A stretch of DNA of 47,453 bases from a virus. Lineage: Duplodnaviria > Heunggongvirae > Uroviricota > Caudoviricetes. The stretch lies in the IMG/VR virus record IMGVR_UViG_2778261248_000001. The stretch is one strand, 5' to 3'. Position 1 is the stretch's first letter. Every line of letters begins with the position of its first letter. Below are positions 386-47,219 of the stretch, in pieces. Both the position numbers and the translations under genes were made by a program. The notes beneath the pieces were generated by a model, which had not been told where the DNA came from, did not search any database, and was given only the letters and a program-made list of their open reading frames with translations.

Positions 386-1600
386 ATGGCGCTGTCTGAT
401 GCGTGGTTGCGTTCAGTCGTTGGAAAGGAACGTGATAAGGTTTTGGTTAAATCCGATCGCGATGGTCTGTCTGTCAGAGTATCACCGAAAGGTCGCGTAG
501 TGTTCCAATATCGTTATCAATGGGCAGGGAAAGGTGAGCGTCTTGATGTCGGAACTTACCCGGCAACTGGATTAAAAGAGGCCAGAGAAGAAGTTATCCG
601 TCTCCGTGGTGAACTCGAGTCAAACCGTAATCCACGATTGGTCAAGCAGGCTGAAAAACGAAAAGCTACTGAAGCCATGACGGTAGAGTCTGTGATCCGT
701 GCCTGGTATGAAGCATATTGTGTAAAAAATAAAAAAGGTTCTGAACAGATACTCCGCTCGTTTGAGCTGCACCTGTTCTCTAAAATCGGGAATATCCCTC
801 ACGATGCAGCTACATTGCATGATTGGTTAGAAATCCTGGAGCCTCTTAGCACTAAGACTCCAGCAATAGCAGACCGATTGCTAATTAACGCAAAGCAGGC
901 CCATGTCTGGGCGTATAAGAGAAAGCTCATTGAAACTCGCCCGCTGTCGGATATCACGGGTAAAGATCTGGATATCCGTAAAGGTCAGAAGAAACGGTTT
1001 CTGACACATGATGAAATTAAAATCCTTTATGCTGCGATCGATGGTTCTCGAATGGTTCCTAAATACCGGGCCTTCATTAAACTATTGCTACATTTTGGCT
1101 GCCGTAGTTCAGAGCTAATTACCGCTAGGGTGGACGATTTTGATTTCATTAATAAAGTATGGACTGTACCACCAGAACGACATAAGACTGGGGAGATAAC
1201 AGGCGAACCGCTAAAGCGGCCCATTATTGAACCGGTTGAAGAGCTTATAAAGTACGCTATTTCTATGAACAATGGTTCCGATATGCTTTTTACTAAGGAA
1301 GGAAGCAGGGAACCCGTTGGTCGGACATCATTGCAGTCGCTGCCTTACAATTTAATGCAGTATGCATGGCGGCGTTTGGGGTATCAATTCCCTCATTGGT
1401 CTCTTCATGATTTGAGGCGAACAGCACGAACAAACTTTTCTGATCTTACTGCGCCTCATATTGCAGAAATTATGCTAGGTCATAAACTGCCAGGGGTATG
1501 GCAAGTTTATGACAAGAGCGATTATCTAGAAGAACAGCGTAAAGCCTACCAAGCGTGGTGGGAGAGGGTTGAATCGATCGTTACTTGTACTGGTTCATAA
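386..1600 (+). CDS. int: Tyrosine integrase, P4/CP4-57-like family
   Basis: 404-aa ORF with SD-like aaggtgag upstream; N-terminal arm-binding-type region, C-terminal HDLRRTARTNF and VWQVYDKSDY recombinase-type motifs; sits next to host junction. Confidence 0.9.
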   Translation: MALSDAWLRSVVGKERDKVLVKSDRDGLSVRVSPKGRVVFQYRYQWAGKGERLDVGTYPATGLKEAREEVIRLRGELESNRNPRLVKQAEKRKATEAMTVESVIRAWYEAYCVKNKKGSEQILRSFELHLFSKIGNIPHDAATLHDWLEILEPLSTKTPAIADRLLINAKQAHVWAYKRKLIETRPLSDITGKDLDIRKGQKKRFLTHDEIKILYAAIDGSRMVPKYRAFIKLLLHFGCRSSELITARVDDFDFINKVWTVPPERHKTGEITGEPLKRPIIEPVEELIKYAISMNNGSDMLFTKEGSREPVGRTSLQSLPYNLMQYAWRRLGYQFPHWSLHDLRRTARTNFSDLTAPHIAEIMLGHKLPGVWQVYDKSDYLEEQRKAYQAWWERVESIVTCTGS

Positions 1601-1975
1601 TCGAAATGATATTTTGCATATCTAGTACGCAATAAAATATGACAGTCCGCTTTGAGCTGCGGACATTGCTAGCAGCATTTTCTGTGAAGTAACGGGAGGT
1701 TGTTCAATATTGCCTCTGAAAAGGATAACCATTCAATTCTTCATTGAAAAAACTCATCGAAGATTTTATGGAGGGATGCAATTTATTTTGAGCGAATTTA
1801 ATTCATCACTAATGATCCTACATAGTTATTGCCTTGCTCACTAAAAGGTGAGATTTCATTAGCTCACCAACAATAATTAAATAGGATCATTAGCACTTTA
1901 TATCAGGCTATAATTTTAATAAATTACGTTATTTAAAGCCATTTTCTCCATCAAGTAATATCTTCATGCTAATGT

Positions 1976-2992
1976 TCACTTTTGTTTTAGCTTTATAATT
2001 TCTGATATCATAGTTGTTAGCTTTGAATCGGAAAGATTCTGCAGTCTATCTTTCTCAATAGAAACTGTACTTTGTCCCTTTTCTAATATGAAATTTCTTT
2101 CTGTTTTCATTAAAAGCATTGCCAACTCTTTTATCATGTCTTCGTTCTTGAATTCTTGAGCATATTTTAGAGACATGACTTTCATCTCAATATTTGTGAT
2201 TTCATTCTGAAAATATTTGATTTCGTCAAACCCATTTTTATAGAGGCGTAGAAAAAAATAAGCAAACAATTCAACGACTATTACAAATGATAATTTAGGA
2301 AGGTGATGAATAAAAAATCCCACCCCATCCACAATGTCTGGCGCGCTGTAAAGAAAGTAAGCAAGAGATAATATCCCTGTCAACGCAATTATTGTTCCGA
2401 TTGCAAGGTTAAGCCCACCTCGTCGATTGAGTCTGTCTATTTCAGACTCTAATCTTAGAACCATATCAGTATGGAGTTTATGTAAGCTGTAGCTCTTCTT
2501 AAAATCAGATATATCGCTTTTTAGGCTGTTATCTGCCAGAAGTATTGTGTTTCCAATTATTCTCTTTTTTGCATCGGATATTAACTTCTCCCTTTCACTC
2601 TCTGTTATTTCAATGGAAACTCCGGAAGATGTTCTATTTTCAATTTCGCTCAATTTTTTATTTAGCTTAACTATTTCTTTGTGAAAAATATATCTCGTGT
2701 TTTCAATATCTCTACCACCAATTCCTTTGTTTAAATAAGAAGTCATTATTGCGACAAAAGAACCAACAAAAACTAGGGCAGTTGCTGTAAATAAAATAAA
2801 CTCTTTCTTCTCGTTTATTAAATTTACTATTGATGATGATTCCAGTTGAATGTCTGAAAGCGAAGTTTTAAGCACAAAATTCATCACAGGTGAAACCATG
2901 ATTATGGCAACAACTATAATAAATCCATATTTTTTTATAATGTAAATAAGAAGACCAAATAAATCTTTCATTTTATCTTTTACCTGAAACAA
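1976..2992 (-). CDS. Orphan membrane protein with coiled-coil segments (about four predicted TM helices), function unknown
   Basis: 338-aa ORF in a visibly AT-rich island between int and xis; hydrophobic stretches near residues 11-40, 65-87, 195-216, 235-252 separated by Lys/Glu-rich heptad-like regions; no recognisable catalytic motif. Confidence 0.6.
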   Translation of the reverse strand: MFQVKDKMKDLFGLLIYIIKKYGFIIVVAIIMVSPVMNFVLKTSLSDIQLESSSIVNLINEKKEFILFTATALVFVGSFVAIMTSYLNKGIGGRDIENTRYIFHKEIVKLNKKLSEIENRTSSGVSIEITESEREKLISDAKKRIIGNTILLADNSLKSDISDFKKSYSLHKLHTDMVLRLESEIDRLNRRGGLNLAIGTIIALTGILSLAYFLYSAPDIVDGVGFFIHHLPKLSFVIVVELFAYFFLRLYKNGFDEIKYFQNEITNIEMKVMSLKYAQEFKNEDMIKELAMLLMKTERNFILEKGQSTVSIEKDRLQNLSDSKLTTMISEIIKLKQK

Positions 2993-3344
2993 ATTTTTAT
3001 TAAAGTAACTTAAAAAATGATTGATTGCAAGATTTACTATTGCTGTTCATTTTAAATTACTATACCCCCCTATGCATACATATAATCCCATAGGGGAGAA
3101 GTTTATTAGTTAGTTAAGTTGAAGGCTATACCTACAATCTAATTTCCCTCCAACCTAACATGCACAAGCGTCAACCTATCGGTAGTGATAATTTTATGAG
3201 GATACGTATAAACAAGATTCTGAGTTGCTCCTATTCATTAAGACAATACATTTTGTAACTTCTGCTTTTGGCTCAGGGTGGGGTGTGAGATTAGGTTTGG
3301 CTCTGTGCCATAGATGTGTCAGTTCACATCTGAGCTAATACACA

Positions 3345-3539
3345 TTACTCAATCACTCCAGCAAACCTATATATCTTGTGTGACGCCCATTTATTTGGGC
3401 ATGATTTAATATCAGGATCTGGAAAATCAGGCCTGTATTTCTGGCCAGTTCTCCGGTTTACGCTGTTCCAGCGAAGAACTGTCGATACTGAAACGCCACA
3501 GAAGTCGGCGACTTGTTTAGTTGTCATTAAGTCGTTCAT
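3345..3539 (-). CDS. xis: Excisionase / AlpA-type small HTH DNA-binding protein
   Basis: 64 aa, MNDLMTTKQVADFCGVSVSTVLRW helix-turn-helix signature; AGGAGG 7 nt upstream; start overlaps stop of upstream gene (TAATG); position next to int. Confidence 0.6.
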   Translation of the reverse strand: MNDLMTTKQVADFCGVSVSTVLRWNSVNRRTGQKYRPDFPDPDIKSCPNKWASHKIYRFAGVIE

Positions 3540-4159
3540 TACTTCACCTCCTGCGGCGGTTCCGGTAGCGGCATCCAGTGGGTTACTTTCGATGCCGGTT
3601 CTTCCACATCGTCAGTAACTGCCCACCATTTGTTTTTCGACCAATCGTAATACCCTTCGAAGGTATCGCACTCAGTCCAGCCGTAAGACTTCCCCCAACA
3701 CCAAACATACTGTTTATCGTTCGGCATTCGCTCACTACAGCTTATCCAACCATCCGGAGTTACCGGAGAGTTGCCCGACAGCTCGTTCAACTTATAAGTC
3801 TGGCTTACAGGTTCGGCACCATTAAGCATGGAGGCGCGGCAGGCGTTCCAGCCTTCATCAAAGCCGACTATGCCATTATTTAAAGACGGACGAGCATCTG
3901 GCACCATCGGCACTGGCTTGGCTATATATAGCGGCTGAACATACCAGCCCTTTGATAACCAACTGTCAGCAATGTTTTTACTCCTCGTTATTGCCGGAAT
4001 ACCTAAGCCATTTTCTGAATGCAGCCATGCCACCGGCTCCTCTTCTAGCGATGCCAGAGCAATTTCATAAGCACGGCGCTCAATATCGTCTCGAACCTCT
4101 AGGCTGCTGATTCGTTCTTTGATTTCTTTAATCAGTTCTTTATTGGTAAATGTGGTCAT
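3539..4159 (-). CDS. Phage early protein, DUF551-type C-terminus
   Basis: 206 aa; C-terminal VTHWMPLPEPP motif typical of DUF551 phage proteins; translationally coupled in leftward operon. Confidence 0.65.
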   Translation of the reverse strand: MTTFTNKELIKEIKERISSLEVRDDIERRAYEIALASLEEEPVAWLHSENGLGIPAITRSKNIADSWLSKGWYVQPLYIAKPVPMVPDARPSLNNGIVGFDEGWNACRASMLNGAEPVSQTYKLNELSGNSPVTPDGWISCSERMPNDKQYVWCWGKSYGWTECDTFEGYYDWSKNKWWAVTDDVEEPASKVTHWMPLPEPPQEVK

Positions 4160-14701: not shown

Positions 14702-15462
14702 ATGATTTTCACCGAACGATGGCGACATAACGATTGTATTTTCTAAGGAAACGTGCAAAGAGTTTTCCAATGATGAGCCTTATATGCATACCGGTGGAAA
14801 ATATCAATAAGCCGCGCAGAGTGGTTTTTTTGTGGACATAAACTTTGTGCAGAACGGTAACCATTATGGTTGCCGTGAATGCAGTTTTTTTACATTGCTG
14901 GCTTTTTTAGATTTGTGTTAGTTATTGATATTAACAAGAAGGGGAAAAGACATGCTAAAACGGCAGGATATGAAGGAAACGGTTATGCGTGAATGTTCCA
15001 GTGTGATTAACCATATCATCTGGAGAAGCCATCCTGATGCAGGGAAGAGGTAACAGTAACGCGCATCAATCAGGCTGCAAATAAATGGCTTACGCCGGAA
15101 ATCTGGCTATCGATGTATTACCGGTTTGTTACCCATGAAGAAAATTAAGGTGATAACGAAACTGATTTTATAGGTGTCTTGTCAGAGTGTTGCGATGAAA
15201 CTTGTGTTGGCAGTGCAGGGAAAACAGTAGGATGAAAATTATAAATTGCTTTAAATTAGCTTGATTTTCCTCATGTTATGAGATATTTGTCTTATATTGC
15301 TGGTTAATTATGAAAATTTTTGTAAATCTACAGCAATAAAATCCATATTAATTAAAGCACTAGATGCGTTTCTGATTTGTGCATGAAACATACATATCAT
15401 AATGATTAATTGCATCTATAATTACAGATACAGCATTGTGCTGTTAAAAAACTGGAGTCCCC

Positions 15463-15570
15463 ATGAATACATTATATGTAAGTGATTCAAATGAAAAATC
15501 TCATGACAGGAATAAAAACAATGAGGATAGTAAGGGTAAGGATAATAAAAAAGACAACCGGAAAGAGTAA
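15463..15570 (+). CDS. Small hydrophilic peptide ORF (35 aa), hypothetical
   Basis: ATG with GGAG 6 nt upstream; MNTLYVSDSNEKSHDRNKNNEDSKGKDNKKDNRKE; below ORF-track size cutoff. Confidence 0.25.
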   Translation: MNTLYVSDSNEKSHDRNKNNEDSKGKDNKKDNRKE

Positions 15571-15605
15571 ATAATCTTTCCTGCATAAAAATACTAGGGT
15601 GGAAT

Positions 15606-15725
15606 ATGTCAGAACATCCAGATTTTGATGACCGTAAGCCTGATGATGAGCCCGTTGAGCGTCCTGATGAGGGGCAACCATTGAACCCTTTTTCACCGGA
15701 TGATAAAAGAGATCCTATTATTTAG
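15606..15725 (+). CDS. Small acidic peptide ORF (39 aa), hypothetical
   Basis: ATG preceded by AGGGTGG; MSEHPDFDDRKPDDEPVERPDEGQPLNPFSPDDKRDPII; followed by a terminator at 15780-15804. Confidence 0.25.
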   Translation: MSEHPDFDDRKPDDEPVERPDEGQPLNPFSPDDKRDPII

Positions 15726-15779
15726 ATATAGCAGAATATAGCCGTTTAAAGTAGGTTGTGTTTTGTTGCTATCCTTAAA

Positions 15780-15804
15780 CCACCTCCACAGGAGGTGGTT
15801 TTTT
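15780..15804 (+). terminator. Rho-independent terminator
   Basis: CCACCTCC-ACA-GGAGGTGG stem-loop followed by TTTTTT. Confidence 0.55.
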
Positions 15805-15861
15805 ACTAATGGAACATTAATTGGCAGATGTGATTGTGTACGACTTATGGGAGGCTTAAGA

Positions 15862-16047
15862 TTATTTTCTGCCAATAATAAAACCAAGCGTTAACCCTAT
15901 GCTTAGAGCAACCACCACGCTAGTCAGTGGATAATTTCTAAATTTATCTTTAACGTTTTCTTTGCCTCCCTGCAAAGCATCGTCAGCACATGATGCATAT
16001 TTTTTGACAGTATTAACTATTTCGTTTTCAGATTGATTTGAAGTCAT
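15862..16047 (-). CDS. Small tail-anchored membrane protein (ElaB/YqjD DUF883-like C-terminus)
   Basis: 61 aa from ATG 16047 (AGGA upstream); C-terminal ...RNYPLTSVVVALSIGLTLGFIIGRK hydrophobic anchor. Confidence 0.4.
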   Translation of the reverse strand: MTSNQSENEIVNTVKKYASCADDALQGGKENVKDKFRNYPLTSVVVALSIGLTLGFIIGRK

Positions 16048-16500
16048 GTTTGAAGTCCTGATGTTAAGTGGCTTTTTAATTATAGCAGATATGCTTTCAA
16101 TGATAGGGCGGAGAGTTGTTATTGAGGTGATACTATGACCACTCAATCAACATTACATAAAATGACGTTTACTCCTGTTTGGCACAGTAGCAGAATTTTG
16201 CTTCTGCTACTGAAGTCGCTTTAGCACTAGAATATGCAGATGGATAAAGCAGTTCAGCGTATGTACTGCGTCATGCATATCGGTCTTGCAGATATGACGA
16301 GAAGGGGAGACAAGGTGTGTGTAATGTAGAAGTCTTTAAAGTGCTGTCTGGGATAACTCTATACTGAAGTGCAATTGATAAAAGTAACACGATAAAGGTT
16401 TTTCAATGAAGATGGTAACGTGATGCTTGCATTTTTCAAAAAATATGGATAAAATTTTTTCAACGATGGGCTTTGTATACCCGACGTTAAGAAAAAGTAG

Positions 16501-46249: not shown

Positions 46250-46840
46250 TTATATGTCAGGTGTCTGAAGTTTTGCTTTGGCTCTTAAAATGGTTTGCCG
46301 CGAGGTTTTGAATTCCCGGGCAATGGCACTTATACTTACACCTGACTTAATTCGTTCGAATACCACCTGTTTCTGTTCTTCATTTAACACAGGTGGTCGA
46401 CCAAAACGTTTCCCTGCGCCCCGGGCTCTTACTATCCCGGAATGAGTGCGTTCAAGTAAAAGGTCTCGTTCAAATTCAGCGACTGCTGAAATTACTTGCA
46501 TCATCATTTTTCCTGTTGGACTGGTCAGGTCAATGCCCCCCAATGCTAAGCAATGCACTCTGATACCTGTTTCGGTCAGTTGTTCCACTGTTTTCCTGAT
46601 ATCCATTGCATTACAACCAAGGCGATCCAGTTTTGTCACAATCAATTGATCACCACATTTCAGGCGAGCAAGCAACCGGTTAAAACCAGGACGCTCACTG
46701 GTTGCTGCTGAGCCGCTAATGTGTTCTTCGATTATTTGCTGAGGTTTGATTTTAAAACCTGCACTTTCGATTTCCCGGCGTTGATTTTCGGTGGTCTGAT
46801 CCAGAGTTGATATCCGACAGTAAGCAAAAATTCGAGACAT
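46250..46840 (-). CDS. pin: Serine recombinase, Pin/Gin/Hin-type DNA invertase
   Basis: 196 aa; N-terminal catalytic [15 protein letters not shown] (active-site Ser), C-terminal HTH; same family as prophage Pin invertases. Confidence 0.85.
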
Positions 46841-46928
46841 AGTGAGACTCTATACGAAATTGGTGTACATATCATAATGCATATCCAAAAATTATTTCGC
46901 TTATTATTGCACATATTTGTATGTATAC

Positions 46929-47027
46929 GTTCGAAAATAAACAAATTCGGATGCAGTCCCGTAATTTTGGTGTAACCCAAAATCGATTTTTTGAAAAATG
47001 GCTTTAACTCGGTTTGTTTTTCGAACT
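46929..47027. repeat. Imperfect inverted repeats upstream of pin (TTCGAAAATAAACAAA / TTTGTTTTTCGAA)
   Basis: 46929-46952 and reverse complement of 47006-47027 share TTCGAAAA..AAACAAA; contains AAACCGAG resembling gix/hix half-site sequence. Confidence 0.3.
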
Positions 47028-47219
47028 CCGGGCGGACTCGAGAAAGACGAATAATAGTGTTGTATGTTGTTTTAGCCAGATTTCAATTTGTTTGGTCTTG
47101 GAAAAGTGGAGCAAAAAGTTGTTAAAGTGGAAAAATGGTAAAAAAGTAGGTTGTTGCGGCATAACGTAGTTGTTGATATTTTTTAATGCATTGAAAAATT
47201 ATTTTTCAGGGGGTGTTTA

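Follow-up and report, generated by a model that had tools for sequence, protein, structure and literature searches.

Several kinds of described membrane proteins are close to the one reported here. AbiZ of Lactococcus lactis (DUF6161/PF19658) is a membrane-anchored protein of ~320 amino acids (aa), encoded by a single gene, with a variable N-terminal coil, a transmembrane (TM) hairpin, and a conserved juxtamembrane C-terminal segment. The 2TM/SLATT effectors of CBASS, Pycsar, and retron systems consist of a TM hairpin followed by helices and are thought to kill via the membrane, and in MotA/TolQ/ExbB proteins and ZorA the TM segments flank a long cytoplasmic helical insert. Lambda RexB, P22 SieB, and T4 Imm are phage-encoded inner-membrane proteins that guard against other phages; RexB has four TM helices and needs RexA. 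Prophage hotspot cargo is known as a kind, as are single-gene membrane proteins of abortive infection (Abi) or superinfection exclusion (Sie). AbiZ provokes premature lysis, in which the phage holin probably takes part (PMC13064643), and in the P2/P4 hotspots (Rousset et al. 2022, PMC9122126) and the hotspots of Escherichia coli mobile genetic elements (Hochhauser et al. 2023, PMC10121019) conserved phage flanks hold mutually exclusive, mostly defensive cassettes in low-GC DNA next to int. We analyzed a locus of the same genetic logic: the single gene between the integrase gene and an excisionase-like gene (the int-xis slot) in the 47,453-nucleotide (nt) virus record IMGVR_UViG_2778261248_000001, which at its full length is called the window below. 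The window is a complete lambdoid prophage of E. coli integrated in prfC, with the prfC 5' fragment and attL at its left end.

The cassette gene encodes a 331-aa protein that resembles AbiZ in size, membrane anchoring, and single-gene organization. Its C-terminal half also has an AbiZ-like layout (coil, TM hairpin, conserved juxtamembrane helix), although a layout alone defines no family. It differs from AbiZ in having four TM segments instead of two (the extra pair forming an N-terminal hairpin), in its conserved motifs, and in the lack of detectable homology. Like the 2TM/SLATT effectors it has a TM hairpin followed by helices, but no nucleotide-signaling or retron partner lies nearby. The TM segments flanking a cytoplasmic insert recall MotA/TolQ/ExbB and ZorA, but there is neither a sequence match nor a significant fold match to them, and a B-subunit partner is absent here. 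From RexB, SieB, and Imm the protein differs in size and conserved cytoplasmic motifs, with no PADLOC or PHROGs hidden Markov model (HMM) match, and unlike RexB it is partnerless. Not previously described are the protein family, its fold-level isolation, the four-TM design of one variable and one conserved hairpin, and its breadth. The int-xis slot of prfC-integrating lambdoid prophages is named in neither hotspot study, and the text of PMC10121019 contains neither "prfC" nor "yjjG." In contrast to hotspot cargo generally, the defense role of the gene in this slot is only predicted.

We regard the gene as a member of a probable new family of single-gene membrane defense or exclusion proteins. 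Its context and evolution make a phage-defense function the favored explanation, and if the gene has that function, a membrane-permeabilizing mechanism is about as probable as not. For the combined statement, a prophage-borne, single-gene immunity protein of the inner membrane that sits in a defense hotspot and acts by an abortive or permeabilizing mechanism, our confidence stands at the midpoint; it was set there because the anatomical and hotspot parts of the statement were observed directly. The parts of the locus are as follows.

386-1600, plus strand: tyrosine integrase of the prfC-integrating type, the left conserved flank of the slot (matches to Phage_integrase, Arm-DNA-bind_3, and Phage_int_M).
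1658-3287, no strand: swappable cargo cassette of the int-xis slot (borders set by blastn against ten sister prophages whose cargo differs).
1976-2971, minus strand: coding sequence of 331 aa, WP_021539736.1 ("hypothetical protein"), a four-TM/coiled membrane protein and phrog_5157 member (open reading frame, PHROG, and RefSeq).
2972-3287, minus strand: upstream non-coding region with a promoter-like site that moves together with the gene (allele conservation).
3345-3539, minus strand: 64-aa helix-turn-helix (HTH) protein, putative excisionase, the right conserved flank of the slot (weak HTH_17/MerR-type matches; annotated as HTH in sister prophages).

The initial annotation had described a lone reverse-strand gene for a 338-aa protein between int and xis in markedly AT-rich DNA. 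The lone gene was confirmed: a single minus-strand open reading frame (ORF) at 1976-2992 lies between the integrase gene and the xis-like HTH gene, and inside the cassette no further ORF had support as a gene. The AT-rich island was likewise evident, with a GC content of 0.27-0.35 over ~1650-3300 against 0.42-0.51 on either side. The length had to be corrected. Judged from sequence comparison, translation almost certainly begins with the ATG at 2971, which yields a protein of 331 aa and not 338: RefSeq uses position 2971, positions 1-331 of the 331-position PHROG profile align to ORF residues 8-338, and three diverged alleles all retain this ATG, whereas the TTG at 2992 lacks such conservation. 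The promoter-like site, which would put the transcript start at ~2995, is consistent with this assignment. The identity of the 64-aa HTH protein as Xis is plausible only; all its Pfam matches were below the gathering cut-offs. Sister prophages annotate an HTH protein there. The RefSeq record of E. coli A32 lacks an annotation for this ORF. The stretch 1601-3344 was 100% identical to E. coli A32 (NZ_CP028743.1), 51 more complete genomes matched it at 99.8% or above, and the allele is common in lineages of extraintestinal pathogenic E. coli (ExPEC), among them UTI89, S88, NU14, and APEC O1.

The borders of the cassette were defined by comparison with prophages that carry the same integrase, which was found in 700 of 5426 complete E. 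coli genomes. Ten sister prophages with other cargo were drawn evenly down the ranking of these 700. Homology to them ended at ~1586-1657 and restarted at ~3288-3297 in blastn, and the variable unit was therefore placed at ~1658-3287. In six of the ten, the slot carried an anti-phage gene: two held Dsr1, one an anti-phage dCTP deaminase, one a dGTPase (PADLOC E value 8e-105), and two Borvo BovA, of which one copy is intact (4e-241) and the other split (1e-174). The split copy, in strain 2014C-3599 (L012 6352-8483), consists of two ORFs of 260 and 396 aa that together cover the 720-position profile, and is probably a pseudogenized defense gene. The remaining four carried differing sets of genes of no described function, given here by locus.

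L009, 6409-7650: 413-aa protein WP_052993680.
L010, 6325-7301: pair of 150- and 160-aa proteins.
L015, 6010-6729: 239-aa protein WP_000040219.
L018, 5812-6968: pair of 137- and 248-aa proteins.

None of these four sets gave a PADLOC match at E ≤1e-5; they are candidates for further defense genes. The int-xis slot thus shows the features of a hotspot, namely a swappable cassette within conserved flanks and validated defense systems as alternative cargo.

The protein belongs to a large family. In PHROGs it matched phrog_5157, function not described, with an E value of 8.8e-226. A word-indexed search returned 1,079 relatives, and a HMMER profile search of 1.84 billion representatives returned 2,803 clusters at E ≤1e-3 (1,543 at E ≤1e-30), clusters being counted at 50% identity and nearly all being 300-370 aa long. 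In a scan of one genome per species, members were found in Gamma-, Beta-, Alpha-, and Epsilonproteobacteria and also in Bacteroidota, Planctomycetota, Acidobacteriota, Nitrospirota, Verrucomicrobiota, Desulfobacterota, and Binatia. The distribution is patchy: the gene occurs in only 71 of the 5426 complete E. coli genomes, yet in many phyla. Distant relatives were present on seven plasmids, and some copies of the gene are split or pseudogenized.

The membrane topology that had been predicted, two TM helices, a coiled coil, two more TM helices, and a second coiled region, agreed with both hydropathy and structure prediction. Four hydrophobic segments were located at residues ~14-38, 56-80, 185-210, and 223-241 (331-aa numbering), in the order TM1, TM2, coiled segment, TM3, TM4, helical tail. 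The AlphaFold2 model built from the family alignment was all-helical (pLDDT 83, pTM 0.66), with long helices between and after the TM segments; low confidence was confined to the loop around TERNF. The positive-inside rule would place both termini inside the cell, with both coiled regions and the C terminus cytoplasmic. Conservation and invariant columns were taken from an alignment of 124 diverse family members, in which the N-terminal third was poorly conserved and the core sharply so.

2717-2971, minus strand, codons 1-85: TM1, periplasmic loop of ~20 aa, and TM2; hypervariable, the proposed specificity or sensor part (column conservation 0.13-0.24).
2051-2461, minus strand, codons 171-307: conserved core (regional conservation 0.57-0.83).

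The core begins with a helix bearing the motif RLxxExxxLxRRG(N/G)xNLxxG, which is followed by TM3. TM4 carries the motif P(K/R)LSxVxxIExFAYFFLRLYK, in which P225 is invariant and E234 is both invariant and membrane-embedded. A juxtamembrane helix (EIKYFQNExTNxE) and the motif TERNFxLxKGQ(S/T)T complete it. An internal duplication, TM1-TM2 with TM3-TM4, was considered after a BLASTP hint (E value 0.034), but was unsupported, with a probability of 0.7% for the N-terminal against the C-terminal half in hhalign.

The same division was seen in the substitution rates. The window allele was compared with two other E. coli alleles, L099, which occupies the same site, and L100, which belongs to another prophage inserted elsewhere, beside tRNA-Pro. 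Amino acid identity and the ratio of nonsynonymous to synonymous rates (dN/dS) are given for each region as L099/L100.

Residues 1-85 (TM1-loop-TM2): identity 59%/35%, dN/dS 0.55/0.55.
Residues 86-170 (first coil): identity 86%/74%, dN/dS 0.20/0.16.
Residues 171-265 (TM3-TM4 core): identity 97%/94%, dN/dS 0.06/0.06.
Residues 266-331 (C-terminal part): identity 92%/91%, dN/dS 0.12/0.07.

In more distant alleles the first ~75 codons were wholly lost by blastn. The TM3-TM4 core is under strong purifying selection and the TM1-TM2 hairpin is hypervariable. A fast module joined to a frozen one is the pattern that the fusion of a specificity domain with an effector would be expected to show.

Members of the family were found beside defense genes in unrelated elements. 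In an e14-like prophage of E. coli, a 45%-identical member is flanked by intE and a CBASS operon (CD-NTase and Cap15); this CBASS (locus L101) forms a complete operon apart from the gene and has Cap15 as its effector. In e14 of K-12, lit, a classical abortive-infection gene, occupies the int-proximal slot. Another E. coli member lies beside a pin-like recombinase at the opposite end of an e14-like prophage, and a 73%-identical one adjoins IS1 and a HEPN protein at a tRNA-Pro element. The Vreelandella member directly follows KwaA-KwaB, the Citrobacter member adjoins AbiJ in the moron region of a prophage, the Kosakonia member is at a prophage end, and the Ectopseudomonas member is in a small integrative element with ParE. 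In a raw listing of the nearest two ORFs on each side in ~50 species, the neighbors included DRT reverse transcriptases, LmuB, AriA, type II methyltransferases, PDC-S09/S20/S35, Schlafen/AlbA_2, KAP NTPase, Pycsar-type TIR, and WYL proteins, as well as integrases and transposases. No neighbor family recurred when 699 neighboring ORFs from 84 loci were compared all-against-all by BLAST, and the gene is therefore read as a self-contained single unit. In Ectopseudomonas khazarica (L007 9138-10827), the family member is followed, 34 nt on, by two same-strand genes (251 and 309 aa) that match nothing in Pfam; the pair, which did not recur in the other loci, may be a lineage-specific operon.

The family has already been flagged by a predictor. 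Table S10 of DefensePredictor (DeWeirdt, Mahoney, Laub, Science 2026, PMC13092281) labels WP_001080914.1 a "predicted novel defense gene" at a mean log-odds of 10.2, against a cut-off of 4. This protein is a family member that shares 45% identity with the window protein across 289 aa (E value 8e-83). By HHblits in the same study, the nearest known defense protein to this family member was AbiZ, at a probability of 68% and 10% coverage, which is not significant. The family's motif strings were absent from the table of validated hit proteins and from the part of the supplement text examined, and in the literature searched no full-text mention of WP_021539736.1 was found. As far as the tables covered in part allow, the family was flagged with no sign of an experimental test. 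The gene had been called undescribed in the initial annotation; this holds in that no function has been described, but the family already stands in a published list of predicted defense genes.

Comparison with known protein families left the protein isolated. It matched no Pfam, NCBIfam, or PADLOC family except for one weak match, to the PADLOC "2TM effector" model PDLC00707 (E value 0.007). The 124 members searched against Pfam and PADLOC gave only scattered weak matches, which touched 22 PADLOC families. DUF2207_C matched 24 of the 124 (best E value 7e-6), but an unrelated AbiZ-like family matches the same model, and these matches are taken to reflect TM composition. A profile search of all Protein Data Bank (PDB) sequences returned nothing relevant at E ≤10, and in Foldseek searches with both structure models the best E values were 0.3-0.4.

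Individual candidates fared no better. The SLATT/2TM effectors of CBASS, Pycsar, and retrons were rejected with SLATT_1 (E value 9e-4), PDLC00707, and PycTM each matching a single member of the 124, and with no cyclase, SMODS, or retron reverse transcriptase operon in the cassette, where the gene is alone. No PADLOC model for ZorA, KwaA, or RexB was among the 22 families; an isolated ZorB match was seen in one member (1.6e-4). For AbiZ-like proteins, hhalign of the family profile against a 35-sequence E. coli profile, built around the AbiZ-like protein WP_000377448.1 from the DefensePredictor hit proteins, gave a probability of 3.6%, with values below 1% against single AbiZ-like sequences, and neither PADLOC AbiZ nor Pfam DUF6161 was among the families listed as matches. 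An Edwardsiella AbiZ-like fragment has a look-alike motif, "IELxFxYFFxRL"; a search seeded with it gave a single hit. The resemblance to SLATT/2TM modules, RexB, SieB, and holins that had been suggested at the outset accordingly found no HMM or fold support beyond isolated weak matches.

Taken together, we propose the following mechanism. The mobile unit would consist of a single gene together with a conserved promoter region and a terminator that belong to it, carried in a slot of prfC prophages for interchangeable defense cargo. The TM1-loop-TM2 hairpin would serve as a specificity or sensing module for a phage-dependent membrane event, which may be the arrival of ejection or tape-measure proteins, the action of holins, or a membrane perturbation. 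TM3, TM4 with its buried invariant Glu and Pro, the amphipathic juxtamembrane helix, and the TERNF motif would form the effector. On sensing, the effector would oligomerize and cause a leaky membrane or premature lysis, so that the infected cell would yield no phage; the outcome would be abortive infection of an AbiZ-like kind. That the family as a whole constitutes a new single-protein sensor-effector class, a set of stand-alone four-TM immunity proteins spread across phyla whose fold and motifs are unrelated to any known defense effector, holin, or stator, and of which this gene would be the founding member in E. coli, is put forward only tentatively.

The case for defense or exclusion cargo made in the initial annotation is strengthened by the slot occupancy, by the CBASS, AbiJ, Kiwa, and HEPN neighbors, and by the DefensePredictor score; this support is circumstantial, and the function itself is read from it. 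The low GC content of the gene, its patchy distribution, and the contrast in dN/dS between the N-terminal module and the core also speak for the proposal. Several results weigh against the proposal. No homology to any validated defense protein was found by HMM, profile-profile, or fold comparison, and none of 50,697 deposited phage genomes contained the gene. A consensus scan of the upstream region found no site with at least 9 of 12 matches and no strong sigma-70 consensus promoter, so that expression in lysogens is only presumed. Housekeeping genes (NadA, Cpn60, LepA, AhpC) are frequent neighbors in other phyla, and the ~50-species listing has no background control. The dN/dS of the N-terminal module, at 0.55, is below 1, so that relaxed constraint is an alternative to diversifying selection and positive selection is not proven. 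The pore or permeabilization step is read entirely from the architecture.

Among the other explanations, one that keeps a protective role is superinfection exclusion, an entry block without killing like that of P22 SieA, T4 Imm, or HK97 gp15, in which the variable hairpin would hinder the ejection or tape-measure machinery. An inner-membrane protein from a single partnerless gene in a prophage cargo slot beside int would suit such a role, and the hypervariable part is the part exposed to the periplasm and membrane. However, the most conserved parts, the juxtamembrane helix and TERNF (dN/dS 0.06), face the cytoplasm and are not obviously needed by a passive blocker; the phyla in which the family occurs differ greatly in their envelopes and phages, and no likeness to known Sie or Imm families was found in PHROGs or PADLOC. 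We consider exclusion unlikely. A non-defense moron, which would use a permissive slot to carry a function in lysis timing, lysogeny maintenance, or membrane-stress tolerance or a host fitness or virulence trait, is improbable to a similar degree. The four slot variants of no known function leave the slot not proven to be defense-only, and both the housekeeping neighbors and the spread of the allele through ExPEC lineages would accord with it. Against this, CBASS, AbiJ, Kiwa, HEPN, DRT, Lamassu, and PARIS components occur repeatedly alongside the gene in unrelated elements, all identifiable alternative cargo of the slot consists of defense systems, and the DefensePredictor score is high. Nothing ties the gene to lysis cassettes, and the holin and lysozyme genes of the prophage are ~16 kb away.

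Two further explanations are far less probable. A divergent ion-conducting stator of the MotA/TolQ/ExbB type, similar to ZorA, was suggested by the MotA-like topology with a cytoplasmic helical insert of ~100 aa and a cytoplasmic tail, by one UniRef label in the family ("MotA/TolQ/ExbB proton channel domain-containing"), and by TolQ among the weak Foldseek matches (TMt 0.42, E value 1.5). This candidate was rejected and is very improbable: PF01618 did not match the window protein at E ≤1 and matched only 2 of the 124 members (best E value 0.004), the PDB profile search returned no MotA, ExbB, TolQ, PomA, or ZorA chain at E ≤10, there was no fold match to solved stator subunits, and no partner resembling MotB, ExbD, TolR, or ZorB, or any other conserved neighbor, was present. 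Equally remote is a membrane toxin or addiction module that keeps the prophage by post-segregational killing, for which defense would be no more than a by-product. Prophages often carry small toxins that act on membranes, genes for ParE and GnsB-type toxins lie near some of the loci, and the occasional split or pseudogenized copies would be compatible with a toxin; but neither an antitoxin gene nor an antisense RNA was found (no conserved neighbor, no Rfam match), and type I toxins do not resemble a 331-aa protein that has a conserved domain in the cytoplasm.

If the immunity reading is correct and the gene is protective, this 1-kb gene represents ~2,800 clusters (50% identity) that are named in no database and reach from Enterobacterales to Bacteroidota, Planctomycetota, and Acidobacteriota, and the single-gene systems would gain a sensor-effector that resides in the membrane and needs no partner. 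The split into variable and conserved modules suits domain-swap studies of phage recognition at the membrane. The int-xis slot of prfC-integrated prophages is a practical hunting ground, with four more cargo types in ten prophages sampled. The allele is fixed in well-studied ExPEC strains (UTI89, S88, APEC O1), so that knock-outs and relevance to phage therapy are directly testable.

The non-coding parts of the cassette were also compared between alleles, and both flanks of the gene travel with it in L099 and L100. The gene had been credited with an upstream region of its own, and this was borne out, as the ~300 nt upstream (within 2972-3287) co-move with the gene at 75-87% identity to L099 and L100. 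This stretch is better conserved than the first 85 codons, even at the different insertion site, and its conserved blocks include CCTCATAAAATTATCACTGCCGAT and GTGCCAAAAGCAGAAGTTGCAAAATGTATTGTCTTAATGA; such conservation at differing sites suggests more than a simple promoter, namely a regulatory leader or an operator. The candidate promoter on the minus strand consists of a -35 element TTGCAA (3030-3025), a 17-nt spacer, and a -10 element TACTTT (3007-3002) that is conserved as TA(C/T)TTT; the assignment is a putative one, made by eye with the help of allele conservation. Upstream of the gene there is also an inverted repeat, CCCCTATG...CATAGGGG (3064-3094, minus strand; free energy of folding (dG) -17.4, z -1.95), partially conserved in the L099 and L100 alleles.

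The ~160 nt downstream, including the hairpin, are 70-81% identical to L099 and L100. Three hairpins were recorded.

1843-1868, minus strand: intrinsic-terminator-like hairpin, GGUGAG-loop-CUCACC followed by UUUU, ~105 nt past the stop codon.
1808-1894, minus strand: 87-nt hairpin enclosing the terminator, with 23-nt inverted-repeat arms at 1809-1831 and 1871-1893.
1645-1664, minus strand: second hairpin with a U-run, GUCCGC-loop-GCGGAC, at the left cassette border just past the int stop codon (dG -12.9, z -1.6).

The terminator-like hairpin that had been noted at about 1841-1870 is real but modest: its stem (1847-1868, with UUUU at 1843-1846) is weak alone, with a z of -1.1, and it forms the tip of the 87-nt hairpin. 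The latter has a dG of -33.5 kcal/mol and a z of -5.1, with none of 200 shuffled sequences as good, and is kept in two diverged alleles with a compensatory CG-to-GC pair. A single-copy element, it accompanies the gene in 54 genomes. The L100 allele has another stem, GGGAG..CTCCC, followed by TTTT, at the same hairpin position. A terminator nested in a long stem could serve transcript stabilization, protein binding, or cassette exchange. An Rfam search of 1500-3600 found no non-coding RNA. A perfect 12-nt inverted repeat, GAACAGCGTAAA at 1532-1543 (3' end of int) and TTTACGCTGTTC at 3457-3468 (inside the xis-like gene), brackets the cassette; ~0.1 such pairs would be expected by chance in 2.1 kb, and the repeat may be a coincidence or related to cassette exchange.

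Elsewhere in the prophage, the early-left minus-strand genes, running leftwards, are yfdP, yfdQ, yfdR, a DUF551 gene, and the 64-aa HTH ORF; head, tail, and lysis genes come after them. The antiterminator gene is followed by ~1.1 kb without an annotated gene (15065-16224). Small serine recombinases have lately been proposed as markers of defense genes (PMC13552941), and a pin-like one is encoded at the right end of the window (46623-47213, minus strand), adjoining the tail-fiber genes.

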